From: Patescibacteria group bacterium
GTDB taxonomy: Bacteria; Patescibacteriota; Patescibacteriia; UBA10025; JAHIVO01
NCBI GenBank assembly: GCA_043808365.1
Contig: JAZDEZ010000007.1
Span: 73,637 to 137,636, forward strand
Length of the DNA: 64,000 nucleotides
Reading direction: 5' to 3'
In this document: positions 3,741 to 63,243 of the stretch, piece after piece
Position numbering within the stretch: position 1 is the stretch's first letter
Layout: each line of letters opens with the position of its first letter
The notes under the pieces: model-generated
The model's input: only the letters and a program-made list of their open reading frames with translations
Databases searched by the model: none
What the model was told of the DNA's origin: nothing
Translations under genes and position numbers: made by a program

Positions 3741-4700
3741 TTATTTCTTAACACTGGTCTTCCAGTCGATCATCACGGCCGTCTTGCCGCTCTTTTGTTG
3801 GAGGTATTTGTATGCCTGCAATGCGGCCTTGCAACCTTCACCGGCGGAAATAACGATCTGTTTATAGGTCACCGTTGTCACGTCTCCGGCCGCGAAAATG
3901 CCCGGCACCGAAGTTTCATTATTCGGAGAAATGATGATTTGGTTTTGCGGATCTACCTTAACCAGGCCCTTAATAAAATCAGACTTCACCGTATATCCAA
4001 TCTCCACAAATACCCCGTCAACGGCAAAGTTGCGTACTTTTGTGGAATCATCAACATCCGTGACAATCAACGACTCCACGCGTTCCTGGCCGGTAATTTC
4101 TTTCGCGGCAATACCCGTAAATATTTCGATATTCTTTTTCCCCGACAATTGATCGACGAGGACCGCCTCTCCCTTCAATTTACCGCCGCGGCTAAACAGG
4201 TATACCTGTCCGGCAATACCTGATAGATAAAGGGCTGTACTAACGCCAGAATTCCCGCCGCCAACGACAGCCACGCGTTTCCTCTTAAAAAGCGGACCGT
4301 CACAGGTGGCGCAGTATGTCACGCCCCGGCCGATCAATCGTTCCTCGCCTGGAACGCCAAGGTGCCGATGCGACAAACCAAAAGCTAAAATGATTGTTTT
4401 GGCAATATATTCCTGGCTGGCCGTTTTTACCAGGAATATATCCTTACTTTTCTCAATTTTTTTTACCTCGTCGAAAAGGAACTCCGCGCCAAATTGCTCG
4501 GCTTGCTTGTGGAATTTTGCCATCAAATCAGGACCAGCGATCGATTCATGGCCGGGGTAATTCTCAACTATGTCGGTAATCGATGCCTGGCCCCCGATGT
4601 CCTGAGAAATCACCAATGTTTTTATGGCCCGGCGACTGGCATAGATGGCGGCCGTTAATCCGGCCGAACCGCCGCCTACGATAATTACATCGTATTCCAT
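3741..4700 (-). CDS. trxB: Thioredoxin-disulfide reductase (low-Mr type)
   Basis: 319 aa. N-terminal FAD motif VIIVGGGSAGLTAA, redox-active CATCDG and second dinucleotide motif VVGGGNSG. Confidence 0.92.
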   Translation of the reverse strand: MEYDVIIVGGGSAGLTAAIYASRRAIKTLVISQDIGGQASITDIVENYPGHESIAGPDLMAKFHKQAEQFGAEFLFDEVKKIEKSKDIFLVKTASQEYIAKTIILAFGLSHRHLGVPGEERLIGRGVTYCATCDGPLFKRKRVAVVGGGNSGVSTALYLSGIAGQVYLFSRGGKLKGEAVLVDQLSGKKNIEIFTGIAAKEITGQERVESLIVTDVDDSTKVRNFAVDGVFVEIGYTVKSDFIKGLVKVDPQNQIIISPNNETSVPGIFAAGDVTTVTYKQIVISAGEGCKAALQAYKYLQQKSGKTAVMIDWKTSVKK

Positions 4701-8695: not shown

Positions 8696-8805
8696 CCCGC
8701 CTGCCGAAGCCATTGGACCGTACCGGAATCGAACCGGTAACCTCTTCCATGCCATGGAAGCGCGCTACCAATTGCGCCAACGGCCCACTGGTTTCAGCAG
8801 GCGGG
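8696..8805 (-). mobile_element. GC-clamp cassette carrying tRNA-Ala(GGC)
   Basis: CCCGCCTGCC (8696-8705) and GCAGGCGGG (8797-8805) are complementary. The inner 7-mers GAAACCA/TGGCTTC pair 6/7 and flank the tRNA. Confidence 0.5.
8714..8786 (-). tRNA. tRNA-Ala (anticodon GGC), no encoded CCA
   Basis: Manual cloverleaf: GGGCCGT TG GCGC AATTGGTA GCGC G CTTCC ATGGCAT GGAAG AGGTT ACCGG TTCGATT CCGGT ACGGTCC A. The G3:U70 Ala identity pair is present. Confidence 0.85.
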
Positions 8806-8869
8806 AATCAGCCTTTTGAGCCTGAGGCTCATAATTAACCTTATTTTATAACATTTTTCAAAATTGTTC

Positions 8870-8969
8870 CCCGCCTGCCATGCCTATTAGTAAATTTTCA
8901 TGATGTTCCACGTGGAACAGTTAGATTATATTATTGCCAATATTGATCAACTTAGCAATGGCGGGCAGG
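8870..8969. mobile_element. GC-clamp cassette with non-tRNA cargo, inserted precisely into a GTTCCACGTGGAAC palindrome
   Basis: It is bounded by CCCGCCTGCC (8870-8879) and GGCGGGCAGG (8960-8969). The flanks GTTC (8866-8869) and CACGTGGAAC (8970-8979) rejoin into the perfect 14-bp palindrome. The cargo itself holds an intact copy at 8905-8918 and TTGATCAA at 8943-8950. Confidence 0.6.
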
Positions 8970-9101
8970 CACGTGGAACATCCATTTCCTTTCTGGTCTG
9001 GTCTGGTGGACCTGGGGAGAATCTCTGCCAGAGGCAGACCTCGCCCTACCTTGATTAATTTTATTTATTGTGGCGGGGGAACTCCGATATATAGGTCACT
9101 T

Positions 9102-9138
9102 TGCATCGTGCCGGAATTGAACCGGCGATCTCTGTCGC
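9102..9138 (-). pseudogene. Orphan tRNA 3' fragment (T arm plus acceptor strand)
   Basis: The minus strand reads GCGACAGAGATC GCCGG TTCAATT CCGGC ACGATGC A. No matching 5' half was found. A further 20-nt tRNA 3'-end fragment with CCA lies at 9004-9023. Confidence 0.5.
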
Positions 9139-9148
9139 GTAATTTTTT

Positions 9149-9370
9149 TGGACCAAAGGGGAGTCGAACCCCTGACCTCTGCAATGCGAATGCAGCGCCC
9201 CGCCTGCCATCGCCAATGGACCTAGGGAGAATCGAACTCCCGTCTGAGCAATGCGAATGCCCTGTACTACCACTGTACGATAGGCCCAATGGCCATGGCG
9301 GGCAGGTAACCAATTCCGACGTTTCAGTCGGAATCCCGACCGCTTCGCGTCGGGACTGAGCTATTGGCCC
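9149..9370 (-). other. Interrupted tRNA-Ala(CGC) gene: 5' piece 9355-9370 (plus TGGTTA at 9307-9312) and 3' piece 9149-9198, split in the D-loop
   Basis: The outer pieces GGGCCAA TA GCTC AGT..TGGTTA and (GG)GC G CTGCA TTCGCAT TGCAG AGGTC AGGGG TTCGACT CCCCT TTGGTCC A give 7/7 acceptor pairs including G3:U70. The interruption consists of two small hairpins (9313-9354) plus cassette 9199-9306. Confidence 0.6.
9217..9287 (-). tRNA. tRNA-Ala (anticodon CGC), no encoded CCA, nested inside the interrupted tRNA-Ala
   Basis: GGGCCTA TC GTAC AGTGGTA GTAC A GGGCA TTCGCAT TGCTC AGAC GGGAG TTCGATT CTCCC TAGGTCC A. G3:U70 is present. It is flanked by ATGGCCA/TGGCGAT adaptors and the 10-mers at 9199-9208 and 9297-9306. 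Confidence 0.8.
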
Positions 9371-9448
9371 TTATGGAAAGGTGCGGGACGAATGCTCTAT
9401 AGCTTACTGTACTATAGGCTCGGATATTATGATATTTATACTAGGCTT

Positions 9449-9629
9449 TGCCCTCGAGAGGAATCGAACCTCTATCTATCCCTTAGGACGGGATTGTTCT
9501 ACCCGCCTGCCATTACCATTGCCCCCACCAGGAATTGAACCTGGATCTAAGGCTTAGGAGTCCTTTGTTCTATCCGTTGAACTATAGGGGCATGGGCAAC
9601 GGCGGGCAGGTCCATTGAACTATGAGGGC
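9449..9629 (-). other. Interrupted tRNA-Arg(CCU) gene: 5' piece 9611-9629 and 3' piece 9449-9501, split in the D-loop by a 109-bp cassette
   Basis: The joined pieces give GCCCTCA TA GTTC AATGGA|TA GAAC A ATCCC GTCCTAA GGGAT AGAT AGAGG TTCGATT CCTCT CGAGGGC A (72 nt, 6/7 acceptor pairs). The unusual G32 could indicate decay. Confidence 0.6.
9520..9591 (-). tRNA. tRNA-Arg (anticodon CCU), no encoded CCA, nested inside the interrupted tRNA-Arg
   Basis: GCCCCTA TA GTTC AACGGATA GAAC A AAGGA CTCCTAA GCCTT AGAT CCAGG TTCAATT CCTGG TGGGGGC A. There is one A31-G39 mismatch. It is flanked by the 10-mers at 9502-9511 and 9601-9610. Confidence 0.75.
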
Positions 9630-11711: not shown

Positions 11712-13775
11712 ATGAATGTCACTGAACTGGCCAGAAAACTCAACATCCCGACTAATGAGCTGAAAGTATTATTACCCAAGCTGGGATTTGATATTGGCCG
11801 AAAAGCGATAAAAGTGAACGACAATATCGCCGAACGGATTATGAAAAGGTTCCAAACTGAATCTAAGCTGATCGAGGAACTGAGGCGGCCCAAGCAGGAA
11901 ATTGTAGATACGCCTGCGGTCAGCATGACGAATCAAACGATAACCATCCCCCCGGTAATTACTGTCCGTGATTTCGCGGACTTAATCGGCAAACCAGTAT
12001 CAATCGTGATGCAAGAACTCATGAAAAACGGAATCCTGGTAAACTTGAATGAAAATATTGATTATGATACCGCAAATATTATTGCGCAAGATTTTGGGTT
12101 CAGTACAACAATAAAAGTAGAAAAAAGTAATGAAGAAACCCTAAGTGATGGCCTGGATACCTTACTGCTTGATGATGAAAAAAACCTCGTTAATCGACCG
12201 CCCGTAGTGATAGTCATGGGCCATGTCGACCATGGAAAAACACAGTTATTAGATACAATCCGAAAAACTAATGTAATAGCCGGTGAGGCAGGAGGCATTA
12301 CTCAGCATATCGGCGCCTACCAAGTGATGGTTCCGACGAAGGAGGTACCATCATCCCGACCTCGTATTGACGAGGGAGGGGTTCCTCGCAGTGCTCGGGA
12401 TGATCACGCTGGTCGCGCGATCACATTCATCGATACTCCTGGACATGAGGCATTTATGACCATGCGTTCCCGCGGGGCCAGGGTAGCTGACATTGCCATC
12501 GTGGTGATTGCGGCAGACGACGGGATAAAGCCACAAACAGAAGAAGTGTTCCAAATAATTGATAACGCCAAACTGCCATATATCGTGGCTATCAATAAGA
12601 TTGACAAGTCAGACGCACAACTGGAAAAAGTAAAACAACAATTAGCCAATGCCAATCGCCTGCCCGAAGATTGGGGCGGCAAAGTGATCTGCGTGCCAGT
12701 GTCAGCAAAAACAGGGCAGGGCATCGATGACTTGCTTGAACACCTGCTGCTTTTGGCAGAGGTGGAGAAAGACCGCATCCAAGCCAACCCAAGCAGGCCG
12801 GCTATCGGCACGATCATCGAATCGCATGTCGACAAAGGCGAGGGCATCATCGCCACGGCCATCATACTCACCGGCACCCTCCACACCACTGACGTCGTGC
12901 AGGTCGGTCAGGTGGTCGGTAAAATCCGATTATTAAAAGACGATCGAGGAAAACCGATAAAAGAAGCGGGTCCGTCCACCCCCGTACGACTGCAAGGATT
13001 GAAAAATTTGCCAGAAGTAGGCGATATACTGCAGGCAATCCGTAATCCGGAATCGCTTAAAAAAATCATGAAACAAATGGATTCGCGCCAAAAGACGTAC
13101 CGCGACCAACAGAGCTGGCGCATGGTCAAGACAAAATCCGAACAGGAGAGAAAGGACGAAAAAGTCGTTGACATCATCCTTAAAACTGACGTCCTTGGTT
13201 CCCAAGAGGCGATCGTGCAAGCCCTGGAGGCGCTCAGCACTCCGAAAATAAAAGTAAACGTAGTCAAAAAAGGCCTCGGCAATATCATGGACATGGACGT
13301 CCTGCGGGCAGAGGGGACGGAGCTGCATATTTACGGATTCAATGTCGACGCAAACGCGCGGGCCGCCGACCTGGCCAGGGACAAAGGCATAATCATCAAG
13401 ACTTACCGCATCATCTACGACCTCCTGAATGACGTAAAAAAAGAGGTGGAAAAAATGGTCGGGTACAAGAAAGAAATCGTGGAATTGGGCCGAGTGAAAA
13501 TCCTAGCAATATTCCGTTCGGAAAAAGGCCAGATGATAATCGGCGGGCAGGTGACAAAAGGAAAAATTGAGACTGGGGGCAAATGCCGAGTCATGCGCGC
13601 CGAGGGGGAAATCGGTAGCGGCCTGCTCACGCAATTACAGCAGGCCAAGCAGCCGGTCAGCAGCGTCCCGTCCGGATCCGAATGCGGCATGGAAATAAAA
13701 ACAAGCCAGATTCTTCAGGTCGGTGATTTCCTGGAAACATACCGCGAAGAAATGACTAAAGATACAAGCGCCTAA
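11712..13775 (+). CDS. infB: Translation initiation factor IF-2
   Basis: 687 aa. G domain VVIVMGHVDHGKTQLLD, GGITQHIGAY, DTPGHEAF, NKID. The C-terminal domains are collinear with bacterial IF-2. It carries a ~25-aa insertion between G2 and G3 (see findings). Confidence 0.95.
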   Translation: MNVTELARKLNIPTNELKVLLPKLGFDIGRKAIKVNDNIAERIMKRFQTESKLIEELRRPKQEIVDTPAVSMTNQTITIPPVITVRDFADLIGKPVSIVMQELMKNGILVNLNENIDYDTANIIAQDFGFSTTIKVEKSNEETLSDGLDTLLLDDEKNLVNRPPVVIVMGHVDHGKTQLLDTIRKTNVIAGEAGGITQHIGAYQVMVPTKEVPSSRPRIDEGGVPRSARDDHAGRAITFIDTPGHEAFMTMRSRGARVADIAIVVIAADDGIKPQTEEVFQIIDNAKLPYIVAINKIDKSDAQLEKVKQQLANANRLPEDWGGKVICVPVSAKTGQGIDDLLEHLLLLAEVEKDRIQANPSRPAIGTIIESHVDKGEGIIATAIILTGTLHTTDVVQVGQVVGKIRLLKDDRGKPIKEAGPSTPVRLQGLKNLPEVGDILQAIRNPESLKKIMKQMDSRQKTYRDQQSWRMVKTKSEQERKDEKVVDIILKTDVLGSQEAIVQALEALSTPKIKVNVVKKGLGNIMDMDVLRAEGTELHIYGFNVDANARAADLARDKGIIIKTYRIIYDLLNDVKKEVEKMVGYKKEIVELGRVKILAIFRSEKGQMIIGGQVTKGKIETGGKCRVMRAEGEIGSGLLTQLQQAKQPVSSVPSGSECGMEIKTSQILQVGDFLETYREEMTKDTSA

Positions 13776-16215: not shown

Positions 16216-16249
16216 AACTCCACTCTGATTTCTCGGGTGGAGTCTTTTT
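16216..16249 (+). terminator. Intrinsic terminator
   Basis: AACTCCAC-N13-GTGGAGT followed by a T-run. It directly abuts the repeat at 16251. Confidence 0.7.
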
Positions 16250-16250
16250 A

Positions 16251-16427
16251 TTAGCTTAGCAAAATTTTCGAGCCGATCATAATTCCTTAGTTAAAAAAGA
16301 GGCGATGAAAATTTGGCTAAGCTAATAATCCCGAGTAACCCGAAGGGAGCGAGGGATCTGACTAAATTTTCAAGCCGACCATAATTCCTTAGTTAAAAAA
16401 GAGGCGATGAAAATTTGGCTAAGATAA
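16251..16427. repeat. Tandem pair of ~75-bp MITE-like units with ~19-bp terminal inverted repeats (TTAGCTTAGCAAAATTTTC / GAAAATTTGGCTAAGCTAA), separated by an ATCCCGAG..CGAGGGATC hairpin
   Basis: Units lie at 16251-16325 and 16359-16427. The same family occurs at 50488-50673, with identical termini and a different interior. Confidence 0.8.
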
Positions 16428-16576
16428 CAATCCCGAAAAGGCCGGCAGGTAGCATAATTGGAGCGAATATCAAGTTTCGGCTAACCGAATGTTGACTGAA
16501 AATTCGAAAAATGCTAATAATTAACCATATAATATGATAGTTTTTGTCCTTTAACATTTTTTAATTGGAGGATCTC

Positions 16577-18469: not shown

Positions 18470-19042
18470 ATGTATCTCATCCCGACGGTTATAGAAAAAT
18501 CCAATTTCGGTGAACGAGCTTACGACATTTACTCTCGGCTACTTAAAGATAGGATTATATTCCTGGGCAACCCCATTTCGGACGATGTGGCCAATACGGT
18601 CATAGCGCAGCTTTTATTTTTGGATTCCGAGGACAAGGCCAAGGATATAAAACTTTACATCAACACACCGGGCGGCTCGGTCACTGCGGGTATGGCGATC
18701 TACGATACGATGCAATATGTGAAGCCGGACGTGGCCACGATTTGCGTGGGCATGGCCGCTTCCATGGGCGCGGTTCTGTTAGCCTCCGGCAAAAAGGGCA
18801 AACGTTTTGTCCTGCCGAATTCCGAAATCCTCCTGCACCAGATCATGGGCGGCGCCGAAGGCCAAGCCATCGACGTCCAGATCCGGGCGGAGCACATCCT
18901 GCGCATCCGCGATCGGCTCAATGACATGATCGCCAAACACACCGGACAGACCCTGGATCGGATCAAGAAAGACACGGACCGCGATTTCTTCATGAACGCG
19001 GAACAAGCTAAGAAATACGGCGTCGTAGACAAGATCATCTAG
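18470..19042 (+). CDS. clpP: ATP-dependent Clp protease proteolytic subunit
   Basis: 190 aa. Motifs [27 protein letters not shown] (catalytic Ser) and [10 protein letters not shown] (catalytic His). Confidence 0.95.
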
Positions 19043-23578: not shown

Positions 23579-23653
23579 TGGTGGGTGCACCAGGATTCGA
23601 ACCTGGAACCACCACTTTATAAGAGTGGCGCTCTACCATTGAGCTATGCACCC
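23579..23653 (-). tRNA. tRNA-Ile (anticodon UAU) with encoded CCA
   Basis: GGGTGCA TA GCTC AATGGTA GAGC G CCACT CTTATAA AGTGG TGGTT CCAGG TTCGAAT CCTGG TGCACCC A CCA. All stems are perfect. Confidence 0.9.
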
Positions 23654-23914: not shown

Positions 23915-24022
23915 AATTACCAATATCCAATTACAAATATCCAATCAATTCTCAAAATCCCAATAAAGCAATTGAACATTGGTCATTCATTGGATATTGG
24001 CTATTATAAAATTGGATATTAG
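23915..24022. repeat. AT-rich CCAAT/ATTGG long palindromic element
   Basis: Arms CCAATATCCAAT (23920-23931) and ATTGGATATTGG (23989-24000) are exact reverse complements. It is homologous to 32070-32188. Confidence 0.75.
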
Positions 24023-31883: not shown

Positions 31884-32069
31884 TCGTACGGCAACGGCTT
31901 TAACCTAACTGTTTATGTGGCTCGGGTAGTCCGAAGAATCAAATTGCTTAAAAATACCTAAACTTCTTTACTACCCTAAGCTACTCATCCTTGGTTGAAT
32001 TTTTGTTTATCGCATACGGTATAATGATTGAAAAAACTCCAAAAAAAAGATATACTAGGCATACAAATG

Positions 32070-32188
32070 ACTAATAACCAATATCCAATTTCCAATAAAA
32101 TCCCAATTCCCAAATGCCCAATTAATCATTGTGAAATTGGTCATTGGACATTCATTGGATATTGGAAATTGGTAATTGGAAATTGTTA
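32070..32188. repeat. AT-rich CCAAT/ATTGG long palindromic element
   Basis: Arms CCAATATCCAAT (32078-32089) and ATTGGATATTGG (32154-32165). It shares AAAATCCCAAT, ATTGGTCATT and CATTCATTGGATATTGG with 23915-24022. Confidence 0.75.
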
Positions 32189-32193
32189 AACAT

Positions 32194-33294
32194 ATGGCTC
32201 TCCCCCCGAAATACCTCCCGAAAATCAAAATGAGCACGGCCAAGACTATGGCCAAAAGCCTGGTTGCCAACCGGGTTGGCCAGAAAATCAGCGACTCCAA
32301 ATTCAAGCAGATCCTGAAAAAAGAAGATGGGCTGAAAACATACTACTACAAACCGAAAGATGCGAAAATCTCCAAGCTGCAGGCGAAAAAATTCTTCAAC
32401 CAGGTCGTTTCGACGGCCAAAAACACTCCCGGCCTGAAGATCAGCCGGCTGGCCCAAAAAATCGGCATCAAACCGAAAACAAATTTTACGCCGTCAAATA
32501 TCGCCCTGAATAAACTGTACCAAAAAGCGACTGACACCCAGCTCCAGGCCCAAGCCCCGACTGGACCGTCTCCGGAAGAAGTCCGCAAGCAACACCGGCA
32601 TGACGAGATGATGAAAACTATGCGCAAGCACGAACGGGCAGATGAAAACACCCGCAACAAATTAGCCCAGCCAGTCAGCCAGCCAAAACCAGCCAGTCAG
32701 CGTATTGCGCCCCCGACCATGCAAGGGTCGGTCAGTGGGGCAACCATCAAGCCAGTTGGCCAATCCACCGGCACACCGGCTGACCAGGCCCAACCGGCAG
32801 TAAAAAAAACCAAAGAGCCTGACCGGCCAACTTTAGCCATCATTCCGTTAATAAATTTATCTCCAGCCGCTGACCGCACCGCGTGGCTGTGCGAACGTAT
32901 CGACAAGCAAATCCGGCAAACATTGCATAATGAAAACATGTTCAACCTAGTCTCAGATCCGGCCATGCATGACGCCATCCGCCGGTATCCCCTGTCCGTG
33001 CCGGCTGACCATGGGACGCTGCACCTGATCGCGAAGGATGCGCATGCTCAGCTGATAGCCTATGGCCATCTGAAAAAAATCGGCCCTCTGGTTGAAATCA
33101 GCGTCAATCTGGCAAATACCCAGAATGACCGGCAGCTGACCCTGGCCTCCATCCGGCAGGAAACTGACGATGTTTTTGACCTGGAACGGCGGCTGGCCTG
33201 GCAGGTCTCAAATGCCCTGTCAGCCGATGAAATCGGGCCGGCGCAAAAACCGCCCGCTCCAGGAAGCAGCGAGGCGATTGACATGCCGATATAA
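32194..33294 (+). CDS. Hypothetical protein with a Lys/Pro/Gln-rich low-complexity N-terminal half
   Basis: ATG at 32194 (the track start at 32176 is a TTG inside the palindromic repeat). The C-terminal ~130 aa (TLAIIPLINLSPAADRTAWLCERIDKQIRQTL..) weakly resembles LpoB/FlgO-type alpha/beta domains. Confidence 0.55.
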   Translation: MALPPKYLPKIKMSTAKTMAKSLVANRVGQKISDSKFKQILKKEDGLKTYYYKPKDAKISKLQAKKFFNQVVSTAKNTPGLKISRLAQKIGIKPKTNFTPSNIALNKLYQKATDTQLQAQAPTGPSPEEVRKQHRHDEMMKTMRKHERADENTRNKLAQPVSQPKPASQRIAPPTMQGSVSGATIKPVGQSTGTPADQAQPAVKKTKEPDRPTLAIIPLINLSPAADRTAWLCERIDKQIRQTLHNENMFNLVSDPAMHDAIRRYPLSVPADHGTLHLIAKDAHAQLIAYGHLKKIGPLVEISVNLANTQNDRQLTLASIRQETDDVFDLERRLAWQVSNALSADEIGPAQKPPAPGSSEAIDMPI

Positions 33295-34551: not shown

Positions 34552-37050
34552 ATGCCAAAACCGACCGACACCCCAAAAAAAGAACCGAAACAGGCCAAAC
34601 TGCCGTCCGCGAACCTCGGCGCCATTGAACCGCGGCCGATCGTCCAGGAAATGCAGGAATCATACCTGGACTACGCCATGTCAGTGATCATCTCGCGCGC
34701 CCTGCCTGACGTGCGCGACGGGTTGAAACCTGTCCATCGCCGCATCTTGTACGCCATGTGGTCAATCGGCCTGCGAGCCAACGTAAAATTCAGAAAATCT
34801 GCCACCGTCGTCGGTGAAGTGTTGGGCAAATACCATCCGCACGGCGATACCGCAGTATATGACTCAATGGTCCGCATGGCCCAGGACTTTTCCATGCGAT
34901 ACATGCTGGTGAATGGGCAGGGGAACTTCGGCTCAATGGACGGGGATACCGCGGCCGCCATGCGCTATACCGAAGCAAAGCTTTCCCGCGTTTCAGAAGA
35001 GCTCCTGTTCGACATCGACCGCAACACTGTTGATTTCATCCCGAACTACGACGGATCGCATCAGGAACCGACCGTCCTGCCGGCCAAGCTGCCCAACCTG
35101 CTTTTGAACGGCACGATGGGCATCGCCGTCGGCATGGCCACCTCAATCCCGCCGCATAACCTGACTGAAATCATAGACGGCATCAATTACCTCATCAACA
35201 AGCCAGAGGCTTCTGTCGCCGAGCTGATGCAATTCGTGAAAGGTCCCGATTTCCCGACCGGCGGCATCATCTACAACAAGAAAGATATCGAGCAGGCCTA
35301 CGGCACCGGCAAAGGCTCCATTGTCATGCGCGGCAAAGCGGAAATCATCGAGACAAAAACGGGATATTTCAACATTATCATCACGGAAATCCCTTTCCAG
35401 GTGAACAAGGCCGGCATGATCGAGCACATCGCCCAGCTCGTCACGGATAAAAAGCTTGAGGGCATCAAGGATCTTCGCGACGAATCGAATAAAGACGGCG
35501 TCCGCATTGTCGTGGAACTGAAAAAGGAAGCCTACCCTAAAAAAGTCCTGAACAAGCTGTACAACATGACCGACCTCCAGACGTCATTCCACGTGAACAT
35601 GCTGGCGCTGGTCGACGGCATCCAGCCGCGCGTCCTGAATCTGAAAAACGTGCTGGAAGAATACATCAAGCATCGCGAAATCGTGGTCAAGCGCCGCACG
35701 CAATATGACCTGGACAAAGCGAAAGACCGGGCGCATATCCTGGAGGGTCTGAAAAAAGCCGTAGATAAAATCGACGCGGTTATTAGGGTCATCAAAGCGT
35801 CCAAGGATAAAGAGCAGGCCAAAGTAAACTTAATGAAGCAGTTCAAGTTTACCGAACGGCAGACATTGGCCATATTAGAAATGAAATTATCGCAACTGGC
35901 TAACCTGGAACGCCTGAAAATCCAGGAGGAGCTGAAAGAGAAATTAGCTTTGATAAAAGAACTTGAATCCATCCTGTCCTCGCGCAAAAGGATCCTGTCC
36001 GTCATTACCAAAGAACTCGACGAAATCAAGGAGAAATTCGGCGACGCCCGCAAGACTGACATTAACGTATCCGCCATCGGCGAATTCAAGCAGGAAGACC
36101 TCATCCCAAACGAACCGACGGTCGTCATGGTGACCCGCGACGGCTATATCAAGCGCGTCCCGCCGGAAACATTCAAGGCGCAGAAACGCGGCGGCAAAGG
36201 CGTTATCGGGTTGACGACAAAAGAAGAAGATACCGTGGAACACCTCATTACCACGACCACCCATGCCGACCTCCTGTCTTTCACCACCCGCGGCCGCGTG
36301 TTCCAGCTGAAAGCCTACGACGTTCCGGTGGCATCCCGCACCGCCAAAGGACAGGCGATTGTCAATTTCCTTCAGCTCTCGCCAAATGAGAGCGTCGCCG
36401 CCATCATGTCTCTTGAGGAGCTGGGTGATTTTAAATATATCGTCACTGTCACCGAACACGGCATCATCAAGAAAGTTGATATTGACGACTTCAAACAGGT
36501 CCGCCGGTCGGGGCTCATCGCCGCAAAACTGAAACCGAACGATGTCCTGCGCTGGGTCAAGCCGTCGACCGGCAAGGATGACATCATTATCGTCACGGCC
36601 AACGGCCAATCCATCCGCTTCCACGAAAAACAGGTCCGTCCGATGGGCCGCAACGCTTCCGGCGTGCGGGGCATGAAACTGAAAGGATCCGACAAGATCG
36701 CCGGCATGGACATGATCAATGAAGGCAAGGCCGAACAGCACGAACAACTGTGCGTGGTGATGGAAAACGGTTTCGGCAAACGGACGGCACTCCGCAGCTA
36801 CCGCGTCCAGGGCCGTGGCGGATCAGGGGTAAAGACGGCCAAGATCACCCCGAAAACGGGAAAGATCGTCTCCGGCTTTATCGTTAATGCCAAACTGGAG
36901 GGGGAAGACGTCATTATCATGTCAGGAAAAGGCCAGGTCATCCGCCTGCCGCTGAAAACAATATCCGTACTGGGCCGCGCTACCCAGGGCGTCCGCCTGA
37001 TGCGCTTCTCTGAGGCGAATGACAAAGCATCAACCGTGACGTTTGTGTAA
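34552..37050 (+). CDS. gyrA: DNA gyrase subunit A
   Basis: 832 aa. Motifs [17 protein letters not shown] and AAMRYTE (catalytic Tyr), plus C-terminal beta-pinwheel repeats. Confidence 0.96.
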
Positions 37051-37101: not shown

Positions 37102-37389
37102 ATGTACACATACTACGTCTACATCATGACAAATAAATTCAATCGTGTCTTATATACCGGCGTTACTAATAATTTAATACGCCGAGTTCTTGAACATAAG
37201 ACAAAAGTTTCGTCTGGTTTTACCAGCCGATATAATGCCACAAAACTTTTATACTACGAAGAAACAAACGATATTGGAGTAGCTATAGGTCGCGAGAAAC
37301 AGATTAAAGGCTGGATTCGGAAAAAGAAGGTTGTGTTGATAAAAACCATAAACCCCACTTGGCAAGATTTAAGCGAATACTTTTTCTAA
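37102..37389 (+). CDS. GIY-YIG nuclease family protein (UPF0213-like)
   Basis: 95 aa. YYVYIMTNKFNRVLYTGVTNNLIRRVLEHK .. REKQIKGW. Confidence 0.85.
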   Translation: MYTYYVYIMTNKFNRVLYTGVTNNLIRRVLEHKTKVSSGFTSRYNATKLLYYEETNDIGVAIGREKQIKGWIRKKKVVLIKTINPTWQDLSEYFF

Positions 37390-37644
37390 TTGTCATTCTG
37401 AAGCCGAGCGTCAGCGAGGATGATGAATCTCCTGACCGCAGGTCAGGAGACGCTTCGCTTCACTCAGCGTGACAATAAAGGGGATGGGACTTGCCGAATT
37501 TGTTACAGCATCCATAACTATAACGGAGGATGGTTTTTTTATCTCCCGAGCGCACCTCTCCGCGGGTGCGCGTCTATCCAAAAAAAGGGGGGTTGCTTCA
37601 TTGTTCCACTCCTCACTATGACAAACTATAAGCGCTTCCTCATA

Positions 37645-50455: not shown

Positions 50456-50486
50456 ACGAGGCGTGTGACTCATGCCTCGTTTTTTT
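50456..50486 (+). terminator. Intrinsic terminator after pyrE
   Basis: ACGAGGC-N11-GCCTCGT followed by T6. It directly abuts the repeat at 50488. Confidence 0.8.
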
Positions 50487-50487
50487 G

Positions 50488-50673
50488 TTAGCTTAGCAAA
50501 ATTTTCGAGCCAAACTAACTTCCTTAAACTGAAATAATTGGCGATGAGAATTTGGCTAAGCTAACAATCCCGACCCCGAGCATAGTCGAGGGGAGGGATC
50601 TATGGCAAAATTTTCGAGCCAAACTAACTTCCTTAAACTGAAATAATTGGCGATGAGAATTTGGCTAAGCTAA
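50488..50673. repeat. Second tandem pair of the TTAGCTTAGCAAAATTTTC-TIR MITE-like family
   Basis: Units lie at 50488-50564 and 50601-50673, separated by an ATCCCGACC..GGGAGGGATC hairpin. The termini match 16251-16427. Confidence 0.8.
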
Positions 50674-52675: not shown

Positions 52676-53782
52676 ATGGAAACACGTGATGATGACAGCT
52701 TGGATAATGGAGAATTTAGACATCTTGTTAGATGCAAATTCCTAACTCCCGATCTGATTACCCAAATCCTAAACGAAGCGACGCTTATGGCGCGAGTTCT
52801 GAATTTCCGAAACGATCCGGGAATTGTCGACTACCGTCTGGCACTCAGGCAGGAATTCATGGACCAAGGTATCACCATGGCCAGCCTGTTTTACGAGGAA
52901 AGCCTGCGAACCCGCTGGTCCCATGAACGCGCCGCTCATGCCCTCGGCGCAGAAGTTATTTCAACTGAAAACGCGGCAAAATTCTCTTCCGCCGCCAAAG
53001 GCGAGAGCTTGGAACATGCTATTCAGGTCATCAGCGGCTTTCGCTGTCCGTCAGAACGGTATGCGGATATCGTTGTCATGCGCCATCCAATAGAAGGATC
53101 GGCCAAACGGGCAATGAAGTTCTGCGGTGTTCCCCTGATCAACGCCGGCGATGGCATTGGCGAACATCCAACCCAAGCCCTTCTCGACATCTTCGCGATC
53201 CAGAGACGATTGGGAAGAATTCGGGATTTCAAGATTGGAATGTTCGGTGATTTGCTCAACAGCCGCGTGATCCATTCAGATGTCTATTTGGTGTCAAAAT
53301 TTCCCGGCGTGCACATCTATCTGGTTTCTGATCCGCGGTTTGCCATCAAGCCTGATTTGCGCCAATACCTCGTCAAGCATAACATCTGGTTCACCGAGTG
53401 TACGCGGCCTGAGGGCTTCCCTGAAGTCTTTACAAAAGTGGACGTGGCAGTCATGACCCGTGTCCAAAAAAACCGCTTCAATATGGACGATCCAGCTGAA
53501 GCCGCCCTCTTCCGCAGCATTCGGGGCCAACAAATCGTCAACCGGGAGCTGGCCGATGATATGAAACCAGGCGCCTTCATTCTTCACCCGATGCCAATTG
53601 AAACTGACAGTGCCGACGGCTTCCCGCCGGAAATTATGACCGAAGTGGATAACCATCCGAATTCATTCTTCTTCCAGCAAGCAGGTGGCGGCATTCCCAG
53701 CCGCATGGCTGTCATCAAGATTCTCCTCGAGAACTGGGGACTAATAAAACGCATCGCGCCGCCTGAAAAAATAACTGCGTAA
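52676..53782 (+). CDS. pyrB: Aspartate carbamoyltransferase catalytic-chain-like protein (ATCase/OTCase family), divergent
   Basis: 368 aa collinear with PyrB: SLRTR (canonical STRTR), VMRHP, HPTQALLD, MTRVQKNRF, HPMP and FQQAGGG. It has an extra ~50-aa N-terminal segment. Confidence 0.7.
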   Translation: METRDDDSLDNGEFRHLVRCKFLTPDLITQILNEATLMARVLNFRNDPGIVDYRLALRQEFMDQGITMASLFYEESLRTRWSHERAAHALGAEVISTENAAKFSSAAKGESLEHAIQVISGFRCPSERYADIVVMRHPIEGSAKRAMKFCGVPLINAGDGIGEHPTQALLDIFAIQRRLGRIRDFKIGMFGDLLNSRVIHSDVYLVSKFPGVHIYLVSDPRFAIKPDLRQYLVKHNIWFTECTRPEGFPEVFTKVDVAVMTRVQKNRFNMDDPAEAALFRSIRGQQIVNRELADDMKPGAFILHPMPIETDSADGFPPEIMTEVDNHPNSFFFQQAGGGIPSRMAVIKILLENWGLIKRIAPPEKITA

Positions 53783-54055
53783 TGCTCCTAACATTGATCT
53801 TTTTTCCATTACCCCCTAACGCCGTGTTGCTTATGCGACACGGCCTTTTTTATTCTCGAGGCCTTGACGCACAATTAAAATGACGGTATGCTTGGATAAT
53901 TTGAGATTGTTGAATTATTCAACAATCTCATCCCGAATGGAATGAGGGATCTCCAATATTAGCCAAAAGGATCCCTTGCTACCGCTCGGGATGAGAACGT
54001 TTCATAATTATTCAACGGTCTCATTTAACAAATCGTTCCTTACAAGGAGTGCAAG

Positions 54056-54355
54056 ATGTCATTTAAAGAGTCGATATCCGATAACCTTTTTGCCCTAGTC
54101 TGTATCATCCTTTATCCGGCAGGCAGTATCTGGTGGCTGATGGAGCACCGCTTGAAGAATAACCGGCGTTTCCTCGTGCTATGCATGTATGGCTGCATCA
54201 CAGCCTTAACAGCGATTAACACGGGCTTAAACGGCTGTTTGATCAACAAGAACCCGGAAAGTTGGACCATGTTTCTGATTAGCGCCGTTTCATATGGTAT
54301 CGGCCTCATCGCCTTTATCATTATGAGCTGGCATAAAAGCAAAAAGATTGGTTAG
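54056..54355 (+). CDS. Small polytopic membrane hypothetical protein
   Basis: 99 aa with three hydrophobic segments and AAGGAG RBS. Confidence 0.55.
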   Translation: MSFKESISDNLFALVCIILYPAGSIWWLMEHRLKNNRRFLVLCMYGCITALTAINTGLNGCLINKNPESWTMFLISAVSYGIGLIAFIIMSWHKSKKIG

Positions 54356-61476: not shown

Positions 61477-61654
61477 AATATAAAAGTGTCATGCCCTTTC
61501 AATGAACCGGTGATAAAGCTGTCCTAATTGACCTTTAATAACCGCTTCGTTGGTCAGAACGAAGCAATAATCCAAAACCAACCCTAAACCACAACGGGTT
61601 TAGGGCAAGAAACCATAGCCGATGGACATTGAGCCTAGGCGATTGGAGGAAATC

Positions 61655-62266
61655 ATGAGTAAAGAAGTATTAACCGTCGATGAACTCTTAGCACTGTTGT
61701 CCAAACAGGTGCTCGTTAGAGCCACGATTCACGCTGGCTTGATCCGCTATGAAACAAAGGAGGATATTCCTCGTACGTGTCGCATCGATAAATTACCCTC
61801 ATCAGAGAAACCGCCTATTACCATTATCCATATCATTGGCTTGTATAAAGATCATGAGGAGAACATAGTATCAATAGGGAAGATACTATACGATGATATT
61901 GGAGGAGACTGGCACAATGCTAATTTCCTGCCGACTCAATACCCGATCCAGAATAACAACGTGCGACAAGCGTACGATAAAGTACTAGATACTCTCAAAT
62001 TTCCCGGCTGGGATAAACCGCAGCCAGCCTGCGCCAATTGGGAATTCCAGCCATTAGTGATAAGCGAATTGCTCAACCCGGAGAAACGAGGAAGGACCCA
62101 TTGCATCACCCTCGACCCCCACGACTCCCGACTGATGGTACACTATGCGTATATTTCAGGGAGACTGAAGGAATACATGATTCAAACAAAACAATATTGC
62201 TGGGCAACCATAAACGATCGGTTCAACGGTTTCATCCGTGCCGGTCTGCCAAAGCTCATTAAATAA
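61655..62266 (+). CDS. Hypothetical protein, paralog A of a duplicated cassette
   Basis: TGGAGGA RBS before MSKEVLTVDELL. Its C-terminal part aligns with 62725-63243 (HCITLDPHDSRLMVHYAYISGRLKEY versus HCVECSPFSPHLLICYTYLLKELQRI). Confidence 0.55.
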   Translation: MSKEVLTVDELLALLSKQVLVRATIHAGLIRYETKEDIPRTCRIDKLPSSEKPPITIIHIIGLYKDHEENIVSIGKILYDDIGGDWHNANFLPTQYPIQNNNVRQAYDKVLDTLKFPGWDKPQPACANWEFQPLVISELLNPEKRGRTHCITLDPHDSRLMVHYAYISGRLKEYMIQTKQYCWATINDRFNGFIRAGLPKLIK

Positions 62267-62324: not shown

Positions 62325-62724
62325 CACGGTGTAAATTATAAGGACAGTCCCTGCTTAGACTGTCCTTTTTATATTGCTTGAAAAAATTCAAATGTCCGCC
62401 CCTCCCCTTCAGGGGAGGGGTCGGGGGTGGCTAGGCTGGTTCATGCACAATATGTGCTTACAATAATAGGGACTGGAGGTGAAGGAATCGATTCACATCG
62501 CCGCCCCCTCGTTGTCATCCTGAACTTGATTCAGGATCTCGGCTATCATAACTAACTAAGATCCCGGGTCAAGTCTGAAATGACAAAAAGAGTGATACTT
62601 GACGTCTCGCCTTCCTTGCGATAGGCTATCCTAATTGACCTTTAACAACCGTCCTGCTGGGCAGAGTAGGATACAACCACAAACCATAGCCGACGATGCG
62701 TAATCTAGGCGACTGGAGGAAAAT

Positions 62725-63243
62725 ATGAACGAACAAACTATCGGCCCGCTCATTGAGCTTGCCAGAAGCGGGAAAATTATTGTCCGGTCTGGGACACATT
62801 TCCTGAATCGAGACTGGATTCGGACATCTGTTTTAGCGCTGATAGTTGACGGGGAAGAGTATTGCACCGTGGACATGCAGTTCTGGTTTCATGGAGAAAC
62901 ATTAGAATGTCAACATACGCCGCCTCATGCCCCGGCGAATAAACTGGAGTACGACGAAAAAAGCCTGGCCGATCGGCTGCGTTTCATATGCCATCCAGAC
63001 ATCGCTCTTGAAAAAAGGCAAGTGGCAGCCTCACTAAATAACGGCCGCCATTGCGTTGAATGTTCGCCGTTTAGTCCACATCTCTTGATATGCTACACCT
63101 ATCTTCTCAAGGAATTGCAGCGCATCAGTCATCAGCCTGAAGAAGGCCATGGAGCGGTAACTCTCTATCGACGCTTTGACGCCTTCGTTGGTGAGCAAAT
63201 CAGTAATGCCCGCAAACAAGGGGCTTTCGTCCAGTTTGCATAG
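62725..63243 (+). CDS. Hypothetical protein, paralog B of a duplicated cassette
   Basis: TGGAGGA RBS. The upstream block CCTAATTGACCTTTAA..AACCATAGCCGA..CTAGGCGAYTGGAGGAAA is shared with paralog A. Confidence 0.55.
   Translation: MNEQTIGPLIELARSGKIIVRSGTHFLNRDWIRTSVLALIVDGEEYCTVDMQFWFHGETLECQHTPPHAPANKLEYDEKSLADRLRFICHPDIALEKRQVAASLNNGRHCVECSPFSPHLLICYTYLLKELQRISHQPEEGHGAVTLYRRFDAFVGEQISNARKQGAFVQFA

Follow-up and report, generated by a model that had tools for sequence, protein, structure and literature searches.

The infB locus and its insert

Within a 64,000-nucleotide stretch of a Patescibacteria genome (contig JAZDEZ010000007.1; hereinafter the window, to whose first base all positions refer), the plus-strand gene at 11712..13775 encodes the translation initiation factor IF-2 (infB, 687 aa), and the part of this gene that encodes the G domain contains a palindromic DNA segment that is read in frame as additional protein sequence. 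The identity of the gene is based on the Pfam domains IF2_N, GTP_EFTU, EF-G_D2 and IF-2 in its product, on the 100% identity of this product to an annotated IF-2 from a metagenome-assembled genome (MAG) of Patescibacteria, and on the gene order bactofilin-DAGK-infB-rbfA-DHH, which is kept in relatives. Because this synteny is conserved, the IF-2 genes of the relatives can be considered orthologues.

From the G2 to the G3 motif the translation reads GGITQHIGAYQV-MVPTKEVPSSRPRIDEGGVPRSARDDHAGRA-ITFIDTPGH, and alignment with homologues delineates the whole spacer MVPTKEVPSSRPRIDEGGVPRSARDDHAGRA as 31 codons (12327..12419, plus strand) in place of the usual 6. Given that the spacer consists of 6 residues in 90 of the 117 parsed IF-2 homologues, the protein encoded in the window has 25 extra residues, in agreement with an earlier note on this DNA that put the excess at about 25. 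The nested palindrome that the same note described in the underlying DNA is also present: ATCATCCCGA (12350-12359) and TCGGGATGAT (12395-12404) form a 100% complementary inverted repeat within which CCTCG (12360-12364)-TATTGA-CGAGG (12371-12375) is nested. There are 6 occurrences of the terminus TCATCCCGA in the window, where 0.57 would be expected, and the paired arrangement TCATCCCGA-N20-50-TCGGGATGA is found twice (12351-12403 and 53928-53994) compared to 0.00 times in 100 shuffles, which bears out the further claim that the termini are shared with an element at 53928-53994. Lone TCATCCCGA sites at 18477 and 35036 were rejected as elements; these are codons of conserved motifs in ClpP (LIPT) and GyrA (FIPN), respectively. 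The fold computed for the insert region is more stable than those of shuffled sequences (z = -3.45 for RNA and -3.0 for DNA). The raised GC content spans 12280-12520, beyond the insert alone, and the corresponding flanks in the insert-less relative L121 are GC-rich as well; with such flanks found both with and without the insert, base composition alone provides little information.

In the AlphaFold2 model of the protein (mean predicted local distance difference test score, pLDDT, of 84), strand beta2 (residues 201-206) is followed by a coil (207-235, pLDDT ~57-67) and strand beta3 (236-241). The model thus places the insert, as the earlier note had anticipated, in a predicted loop that caps the beta2-beta3 hairpin and separates G2 (switch I) from G3. 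The solved structure of Thermus thermophilus IF2 has 2 residues where the protein from the window has 27, and no insert was found in solved IF-2 structures. The 25-aa insert (MVPTKE...HAGRA) does not show intein features: neither the N-terminal Cys/Ser nor the C-terminal His-Asn plus Cys/Ser/Thr of the splicing blocks is present at its boundaries, and inteins have at least ~130 aa.

Anatomy of the IF-2 cassette

The DNA of the cassette was analyzed in 14 distinct carriers (alignment A2), and that of the site in 4 insert-less relatives. In every carrier, the spacer consists of three hairpins, namely h1 (xVPxKxE), h2, which is the core of the repeat family described below, and h3, which extends from the position after RDD to the last spacer codon. 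In the window, h1 (TGGTT...TACCA; 12328..12350, plus strand) encodes VPTKEVP and is recovered in per-sequence folds. Hairpin h2 (12351..12403, assigned to neither strand) is bounded by the termini TCATCCCGA (12351-12359, codons SSR) and TCGGGATGA (12395-12403, within ARDD) and is defined by this inverted pair, an exact match to the termini of the family at their spacing of 25-55 nt, together with a marginal match to the covariance model R1 introduced below. Its left arm contains the plus-strand inner hairpin CCTCG-TATTGA-CGAGG (12360..12375), which is shared with L130, L123 and L136, and its tip is the plus-strand hairpin GAGG-GGTT-CCTC (12376..12387), a degenerate form of the family centre GAGGGATCCCTC in which A2 columns 56-59 pair with columns 64-67. 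The GAGG/CCTC pairing is retained in 12-13 of the 14 carriers; likewise, the inner stem GAGGGATC...GATCCCTC is present as GAGGGATCCCTC in 12-13 of the 14 IF-2 cassettes and is degenerate (GAGGGGTTCCTC) in the window. Hairpin h3 (CACGC-TGGTC-GCGCG; 12405..12419, plus strand) encodes HAGRA and contains a single A-C mismatch in the genome from which the window comes.

The three hairpins are flanked by a potential closing stem, P1, on the plus strand, with a 5' half GTGA (12324..12327; the Val codon GTG and the first base of the cassette) and a 3' half TCAC (12421..12424; from the Ile-Thr codons ATC ACA); this pair is invariant in A2. Immediately before the spacer, 13 of 14 carriers have the codon GTG, which none of the 4 insert-less relatives has (GTC, GTA, GTT, GTA; Fisher p ~1.6e-3); immediately after the spacer, all 14 carriers have ATC, again absent from the 4 (ATA, ATT, ATA, ATA; Fisher p ~3.3e-4). 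With these codons fixed, GTGA/TCAC is able to close a four-way junction, so that the whole spacer can fold as a junction of the closing stem and three hairpins. RNAalifold favours an alternative isomer with the pairings GTGA-TCAT and TGAT-ATCA. Across the 14 carriers, 92.3% of the cells of the four-way junction pair, compared to 29-45% when the partners are slid. Compensatory double changes are found in 10 junction pairs, including 5/5 pairs of h1 and 4/5 of h3, and the observed covariation score was reached by none of 500 shuffles.

Codon usage around and within the cassette points in the same direction. Of 22 flanking codons that specify the same amino acid in every carrier, 20 vary synonymously and only the two that abut the cassette are fixed, whereas SSR is encoded by the same triplet of codons, TCA TCC CGA, in 13 of 14 carriers; the spacer of the insert-less L121, for comparison, reads GTT AAT AAT GGG AAA AGC. 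Furthermore, reverse-complement codons (the pairs S-T, D-I, F-K, R-A, G-T, L-Q and N-I) encode the residue that follows RDD and the final spacer residue in 24 of 33 distinct cassettes; the expectation is 11.9, and 10,000 shuffles gave at most 22 (p<=1e-4). From the termini that are invariant at synonymous sites and the covarying stems, we infer that the constraint on the cassette is likely to act on the nucleic acid rather than on the peptide.

The loop and 3' side of h1 contain, at 12340-12347, a perfect Shine-Dalgarno-like string, GAAGGAGG (AAGGAGG), inside infB. As a conserved feature it was rejected, other carriers having only purine-rich variants, and the pairing of GGAAC with GTTCC probably gave rise to it incidentally.

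A repeat family spread over many phyla

A scan of 185,579 species genomes (596 Gb) with only the 18 terminal bases of the element returned at least 120 loci. This raw count is no evidence by itself because chance alone should produce ~270 matches to 18 specified bases at 31 spacings in 596 Gb; hence only a shared internal consensus and the occurrence of multiple copies per genome count as evidence. Most of the matched loci share ~50 further conserved positions outside the searched bases. The short form of the family is TGTCATCCCGAGCGNAGCGAGGGATC...GATCCCTCGCTNCGCTCGGGATGACA, and the consensus can be written as TGTCATCCCGAGCG-N-AGCGAGGGATC...loop...GATCCCTCGCT-N-CGCTCGGGATGACA or, in its extended form of 60-73 nt, as (C/T)TG-TCATCCCGAGCG-N-AGCGAGGGATC, a variable and often self-paired loop, and GATCCCTCGCT-N-CGCTCGGGATGA-CA(G/A). 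The N positions of the two arms are frequently non-complementary. The motif GCGNAGC is a very stable DNA mini-hairpin.

The hosts include Alphaproteobacteria, Acidobacteriota, Gemmatimonadota, Lysobacterales, Bacteroidota, Chlorobi, Planctomycetota, Verrucomicrobiota, Legionellales, Saccharibacteria and others, and Reyranella-like genomes (Alphaproteobacteria) carry several copies per 8 kb. In bacterial phyla the copies are mostly intergenic. The family is also represented on 16 viral contigs from IMG/VR (L138-L153), such that phages could carry the repeat between hosts; in L153, copies are located at 4049, 5448 and 7587, among genes for a helix-turn-helix protein, the terminase large subunit and the portal protein. 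The flanks of 71 canonical copies extend the palindrome, mostly by 2-5 nt, with no direct repeats indicative of target-site duplication seen in these flanks, and 2 of the 71 copies have flanking hairpins of their own. A spot check of L035 and L153 revealed no transposases between neighbouring copies, which are separated instead by genes for a DEAD-box helicase or for terminase and portal proteins. Nested or partly duplicated copies, with a terminus and its flank directly repeated, were observed in L040 (6857-6925) and L045 (37-98) and may point to one copy having inserted into another, or to slippage.

Scans of the window against Rfam at the gathering threshold detected only tRNAs, and permissive scans of the canonical copies and of 53700-54200 matched no family, with only generic hairpins resembling miRNA precursors below the threshold. 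A search of the searchable literature for the sequence string retrieved only unrelated primers, a keyword search yielded only background on Rickettsia palindromic elements (RPE) and miniature inverted-repeat transposable elements (MITE), and blastn against the PLSDB plasmids returned no match. With no Rfam family and no sequence match in the literature, the family is apparently undescribed so far. A role as a DNA uptake sequence was considered and rejected, given a density that is far too low and the cross-phylum distribution.

Variants of the repeat differ in the four bases that follow TGTCA (TTCC, CTGC, TTCT), with the partner arm changed to match, and those with TTCC or CTGC in place of TCCC are intergenic in relatives (L124:18431-18536 and L127:21074-21190). 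These variants suggest a putative superfamily of the form TGTCA-NNNN-GAG...CTC-NNNN-TGACA. The right arm of a sister variant, read as ...ILRSAQDD (CTCAGGATGAC), was noticed in the IF-2 spacers of P0103, P0129, P0131 and P0135; the corresponding left arm, TCATCCTGA, would produce a stop codon in the IF-2 frame and is missing or altered in those spacers.

To compare the IF-2 inserts with the family, we used a covariance model (R1) derived from 40 copies from phyla other than Patescibacteria (alignment A1). R1 matches the IF-2 inserts of relatives with E-values from 1.6e-9 to 7e-3 (L125, 1.6e-9; L135, 1e-6; L126, 6e-5; also L132, L127 and L130) and the insert in the window (12347-12407) marginally, with 17.4 bits and E=0.025. 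When translated in the IF-2 frame, the consensus arms read SSRAKRGI and IPRFARDD, and the IF-2 inserts conform to ...SSR..(R)GGIPR..ARDD...; the spacer of P0122 (SSRAKRGI...RDD) is an exact translation of the consensus, and the arms of the palindrome in the window read as SSR and (A)RDD.

The window contains, in addition to this coding copy, two to three intergenic copies, none assigned a strand. The best of these (53924..53998, core 53928-53994; R1 39.7 bits, E=2e-8), which is also apparent from its folds and from the repeats I8, I10 and I25, has its own flanking hairpins (53902-53930 and ~53988-54024) and with them spans 53902-54024. A diverged copy, GTTGTCATCCTGA...AAATGACAAA (62511..62587; 24.7 bits, E=2.6e-4), is located between the open reading frames (ORFs) 61622-62266 and 62725-63243 and is of the CCTGA (sister-variant) type. 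A probable variant, TTGTCATTCTGAAGCCGAGCGTCAGCGAGG...GTGACAA (37389..37476; 16.6 bits, E=0.043; fold z = -3.2), lies between an ORF that ends at 37389 and one that starts at 37420.

A second coding copy was identified in the MutS gene of L091 (MAG JAZDEU010000028.1, ~1325-1378), where a 46-nt family core is in frame within domain III. Its reading frame differs from that in IF-2 (...PVIPSVAEGSLHCDRDDN...), and it has no flanking hairpins. Other stop-free frames across canonical copies, which come from GC-rich genomes, were mostly non-genes or had the copy outside the domain, so that only the MutS case of L091 is clean.

Distribution among Patescibacteria

A homologous insert at the same site is present in 27 of the 117 IF-2 proteins, with spacers of 15-42 residues, and the orthologous loops carry the palindrome in their DNA. 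A further 17 carriers were found among cluster representatives (1.84 billion searched), in a short-peptide search that also produced spurious matches to ankyrin-like repeat proteins and low-complexity sequences. All named carriers belong to Patescibacteria (Buchananbacteria, Kerfeldbacteria or Parcubacteria), and the insert is in frame in every carrier, named or not.

Carriers and insert-less proteins are interspersed at short distances. Three sequenced relatives that are 81-89% identical to carriers have no insert, and neither do the closest relatives of the protein from the window, P0002 and P0003 (81%). In the best resolved case, L130, a carrier, is 80% identical to the window in the host protein and 84% identical at the nucleotide level in the cassette, whereas L121 and L156, both insert-less, share 85% identity with the window and 87% with one another. 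These identities yield the tree (L130,(window,(L121,L156))), which implies one loss because both L130 and the window are carriers. The type of the cassette tracks the host clade: the clade of the window has the 31-aa class, and L125, L126 and L129, with 68-72% identity among their hosts, share a short class of the form SSRPKGGIPR. The longer arm is on the 5' side in all carriers. Decayed cassettes are found in L128 and L123, and shortened spacers measure 15-22 aa (e.g., 15 aa in P0095 and 19 aa in P0100).

Two specific routes were examined and rejected or found without evidence. As a mechanism of loss, a deletion from one TGAT (or ATCA) direct repeat to the next would take out 76 nt (or 70 nt) and so be out of frame. 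For import of the cassette into the window by recombination there is no evidence: the flanks are lineage-specific, and no dip in identity or conversion tract is apparent.

Origin and maintenance of the cassette

We consider it probable that the 25 extra residues of IF-2 are a repeat-derived, translated cassette. Under this interpretation, a copy of a small palindromic repeat would have entered infB and been translated in frame as 25 residues; this insertion would have occurred once, early in a lineage of Patescibacteria, after which the cassette would have been inherited mainly vertically and repeatedly lost, partly deleted or degraded, and alleles with and without the cassette may have been swapped among relatives. 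The nucleic acid would be the conserved part, and the peptide a by-product tolerated by the loop. All carriers share an IF-2-specific architecture that copies elsewhere lack, hence the inference of a single origin, and we favour one old insertion with repeated loss over recurrent lateral spread.

Several observations weigh against this scenario. Given its own marginal score, the membership of the insert from the window in the family would rest partly on orthology with better-preserved inserts, and its translation is deduced, plausibly, from conservation of the reading frame. The carriers L130-L136 were chosen by a DNA pattern with intact termini, which inflates the apparent conservation of the termini, although intact termini are also found in 8 of 9 carriers that were detected through proteins. 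In a neighbor-joining tree with the insert masked, the carriers are scattered, requiring 20 parsimony changes for 27 carriers (random mean 24.4), and cassette distances correlate weakly with those between hosts (Mantel r=0.26, p ~0.06). The 6-codon spacers of insert-less proteins are A-rich (xKNGKx), and no single simple deletion would turn the cassette into them, so that 'loss' would require either replacement by the allele of an insert-less close relative or shrinkage in several steps. Finally, a merely tolerated insert should drift, yet the termini do not vary at synonymous sites across hosts that are only 40-50% identical, and the consensus of the family differs little between phyla; possible causes include selection for RNA or DNA structure, a conserved binding factor, and conversion from other copies.

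Invariance of this kind would be expected if the cassette were kept as a functional structured RNA in the infB mRNA, for instance a pause, a signal for stability or processing, or a protein-binding site, with the peptide being incidental. The strong covariation of h1 and h3, the synonymous codon choice that completes the closing stem, the synonymously invariant termini, and a fold more stable than shuffles are all compatible with such a role. However, relatives that are 81-89% identical manage without the cassette, and L128 and L123 let it decay; moreover, the junction shows no clear preference for G-U pairs over A-C mismatches (12 vs 15, or 9 vs 4 without the decayed copies), so that RNA of the sense strand is not singled out over DNA, and the family core is symmetric and, in other phyla, usually located between genes, with no match in Rfam. 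We therefore regard this explanation as possible but doubtful. A protein-level adaptation of patescibacterial IF-2, such as a contact with the unusual ribosomes of these bacteria, with the palindrome as a coincidence of codon choice, would fit the location between the two switch regions and the SSR...GGIPR...RDD pattern kept in many carriers. Nevertheless, SSR and RDD are encoded by one fixed set of codons next to variable neighbours, and residues covary as reverse-complement codons, for which there is no protein logic. The sequence is also found outside genes and in other phyla, the peptide drifts where the palindrome decays (L128), and the segment is modelled as a coil with low confidence. 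Taken together, these findings make the adaptive explanation very improbable.

The patchy distribution, with its 20 inferred changes, raises the alternative that the cassette is a site-specific mobile unit that repeatedly entered, or was copied into, the same site of infB, in a manner resembling homing of inteins or introns, or spread by allele conversion. The differences in presence between relatives that are 82-89% identical, the two core variants among the IF-2 inserts (...ARDD and ...ILRSAQDD), the copies on viral contigs, and flanks that keep their lineage-specific sequence to the very edge of the spacer, without a co-conversion tract, can be accommodated by this alternative. Yet h1, h3 and P1 are common to all carriers whereas free copies are without them, the long arm is always 5', cassette types go with host clades, and in one clade a loss is clearly indicated. 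Neither target-site duplications, in the flanks of the 71 copies, nor an associated enzyme, in the spot check of L035 and L153, were found. Accordingly, we consider such mobility unlikely. An artefact of assembly or binning might be suspected given that the window comes from a metagenome-assembled genome, but the cassette is present in independent assemblies (NCBI, JGI, ENA, Logan), and identical cassettes come from separate records (L126=L133 and L124=L134), leaving this explanation with hardly any credibility.

A more speculative extension, which we put forward tentatively and would not expect to hold, is that the repeat-derived cassette is a selected four-way-junction device in an essential gene. 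Its arms would be the recognition site of a conserved factor, which would explain the cross-phylum repeat, and its alleles would be exchanged among Patescibacteria.

Other features of the window

A second, unrelated hairpin family with 22-nt arms (TTATTAGCTTAGCAAAATTTTC/GAAAATTTGGCTAAGCTAATAA) is represented by 2-3 AT-rich copies (16247-16329, 16409-16430 and 50484-50568), where R1 matches weakly. Intergenic clusters of CCAAT/ATTGG-rich inverted repeats (AATAACCAATATCCAATTTCCAATA and similar) at 23915-24005 and 32066-32184, the latter just upstream of the ORF 32176-33294 and near gyrA (34552-37050), could be operator or origin-like sites. Four tRNA genes are clustered on the minus strand (8714-9591), and one more is located at 23582-23653.

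Relation to known repeats and implications

Among known systems, RPE are the closest parallel to the IF-2 repeat. In the available description, RPE are palindromic repeats of ~100-150 bp that are inserted in frame in conserved genes and are peculiar to Rickettsia (Ogata et al., 2000, 2002, cited after PMC10969869). As far as this description goes, the two share a short multi-copy palindrome placed in frame in conserved or essential genes, with an extra hydrophilic segment tolerated by the fold; the hallmark of in-frame repeats in coding genes is seen here in IF-2 and in MutS of L091. By the same description, the present family is set apart by a core of 45-75 bp (in the window, a core of 53 nt within a cassette of 93 nt) and by its occurrence in Patescibacteria and many other phyla. 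Furthermore, the IF-2 copy is part of a conserved junction that occupies one site in many lineages and is lost in others. The IF-2 repeat thus resembles RPE but is a different family by size and host range and presumably by consensus. The proposal of the earlier note, an RPE-like repeat read in frame within a loop, accordingly stands in its main part and has to be amended in three respects. Instead of a recent landing private to one strain, we find a homologous cassette at the same site in many patescibacterial IF-2 proteins, with the closest relatives lacking it; the palindrome is real, but the unit in IF-2 is larger and comprises the 31-codon spacer with the two abutting codons; and the element is not restricted to one genome but spread over many phyla.

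Like MITE, REP, BIME, REPIN, ERIC and Correia elements, the members of the family are small, non-coding, hairpin-forming palindromes that are mostly intergenic and occasionally intragenic. With terminal inverted repeats (arms of ~26 nt) and a total of 60-73 nt they fit the format of MITE, but they lack target-site duplications, and no parent insertion sequence was identified in the spot check of L035 and L153. In contrast to the RAYT-associated REP and REPIN, the family has the head (C/T)TGTCAT rather than one of the GTAG type 5' of a palindrome of 20-40 nt, and whereas REP families are species-specific, this family is near-identical across phyla. The sporadic occurrence at one identical position in an essential and highly conserved gene is reminiscent of inteins and homing introns; however, the cassette consists of 25 codons without splicing motifs, an endonuclease or a match to an Rfam ribozyme, and it is retained in the product. 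As in loop insertions of other translational GTPases, the beta2-beta3 turn is extended and G1-G5 are intact, but in this case the repeat origin is identifiable and the constraint is at the nucleotide level.

In-frame protein-coding palindromes, so far treated as a peculiarity of Rickettsia, are thus encountered in the G domain of patescibacterial IF-2, along with a repeat family that crosses phyla. The constraints on protein and nucleic acid are separable here, with part of the protein sequence dictated by base pairing. In practical terms, the strings SSRAKRGI, VIPSEARDL, IPRFARDD and SLASLGMT in predicted proteins are marks of a translated repeat, and the segment should be masked in alignments and phylogenies of IF-2 from Patescibacteria. 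If the cassette should prove to be a selected nucleic-acid device, the repeat would represent an undescribed class of cross-phylum elements, and the protein insert would be a read-out of selection at the level of DNA or RNA.

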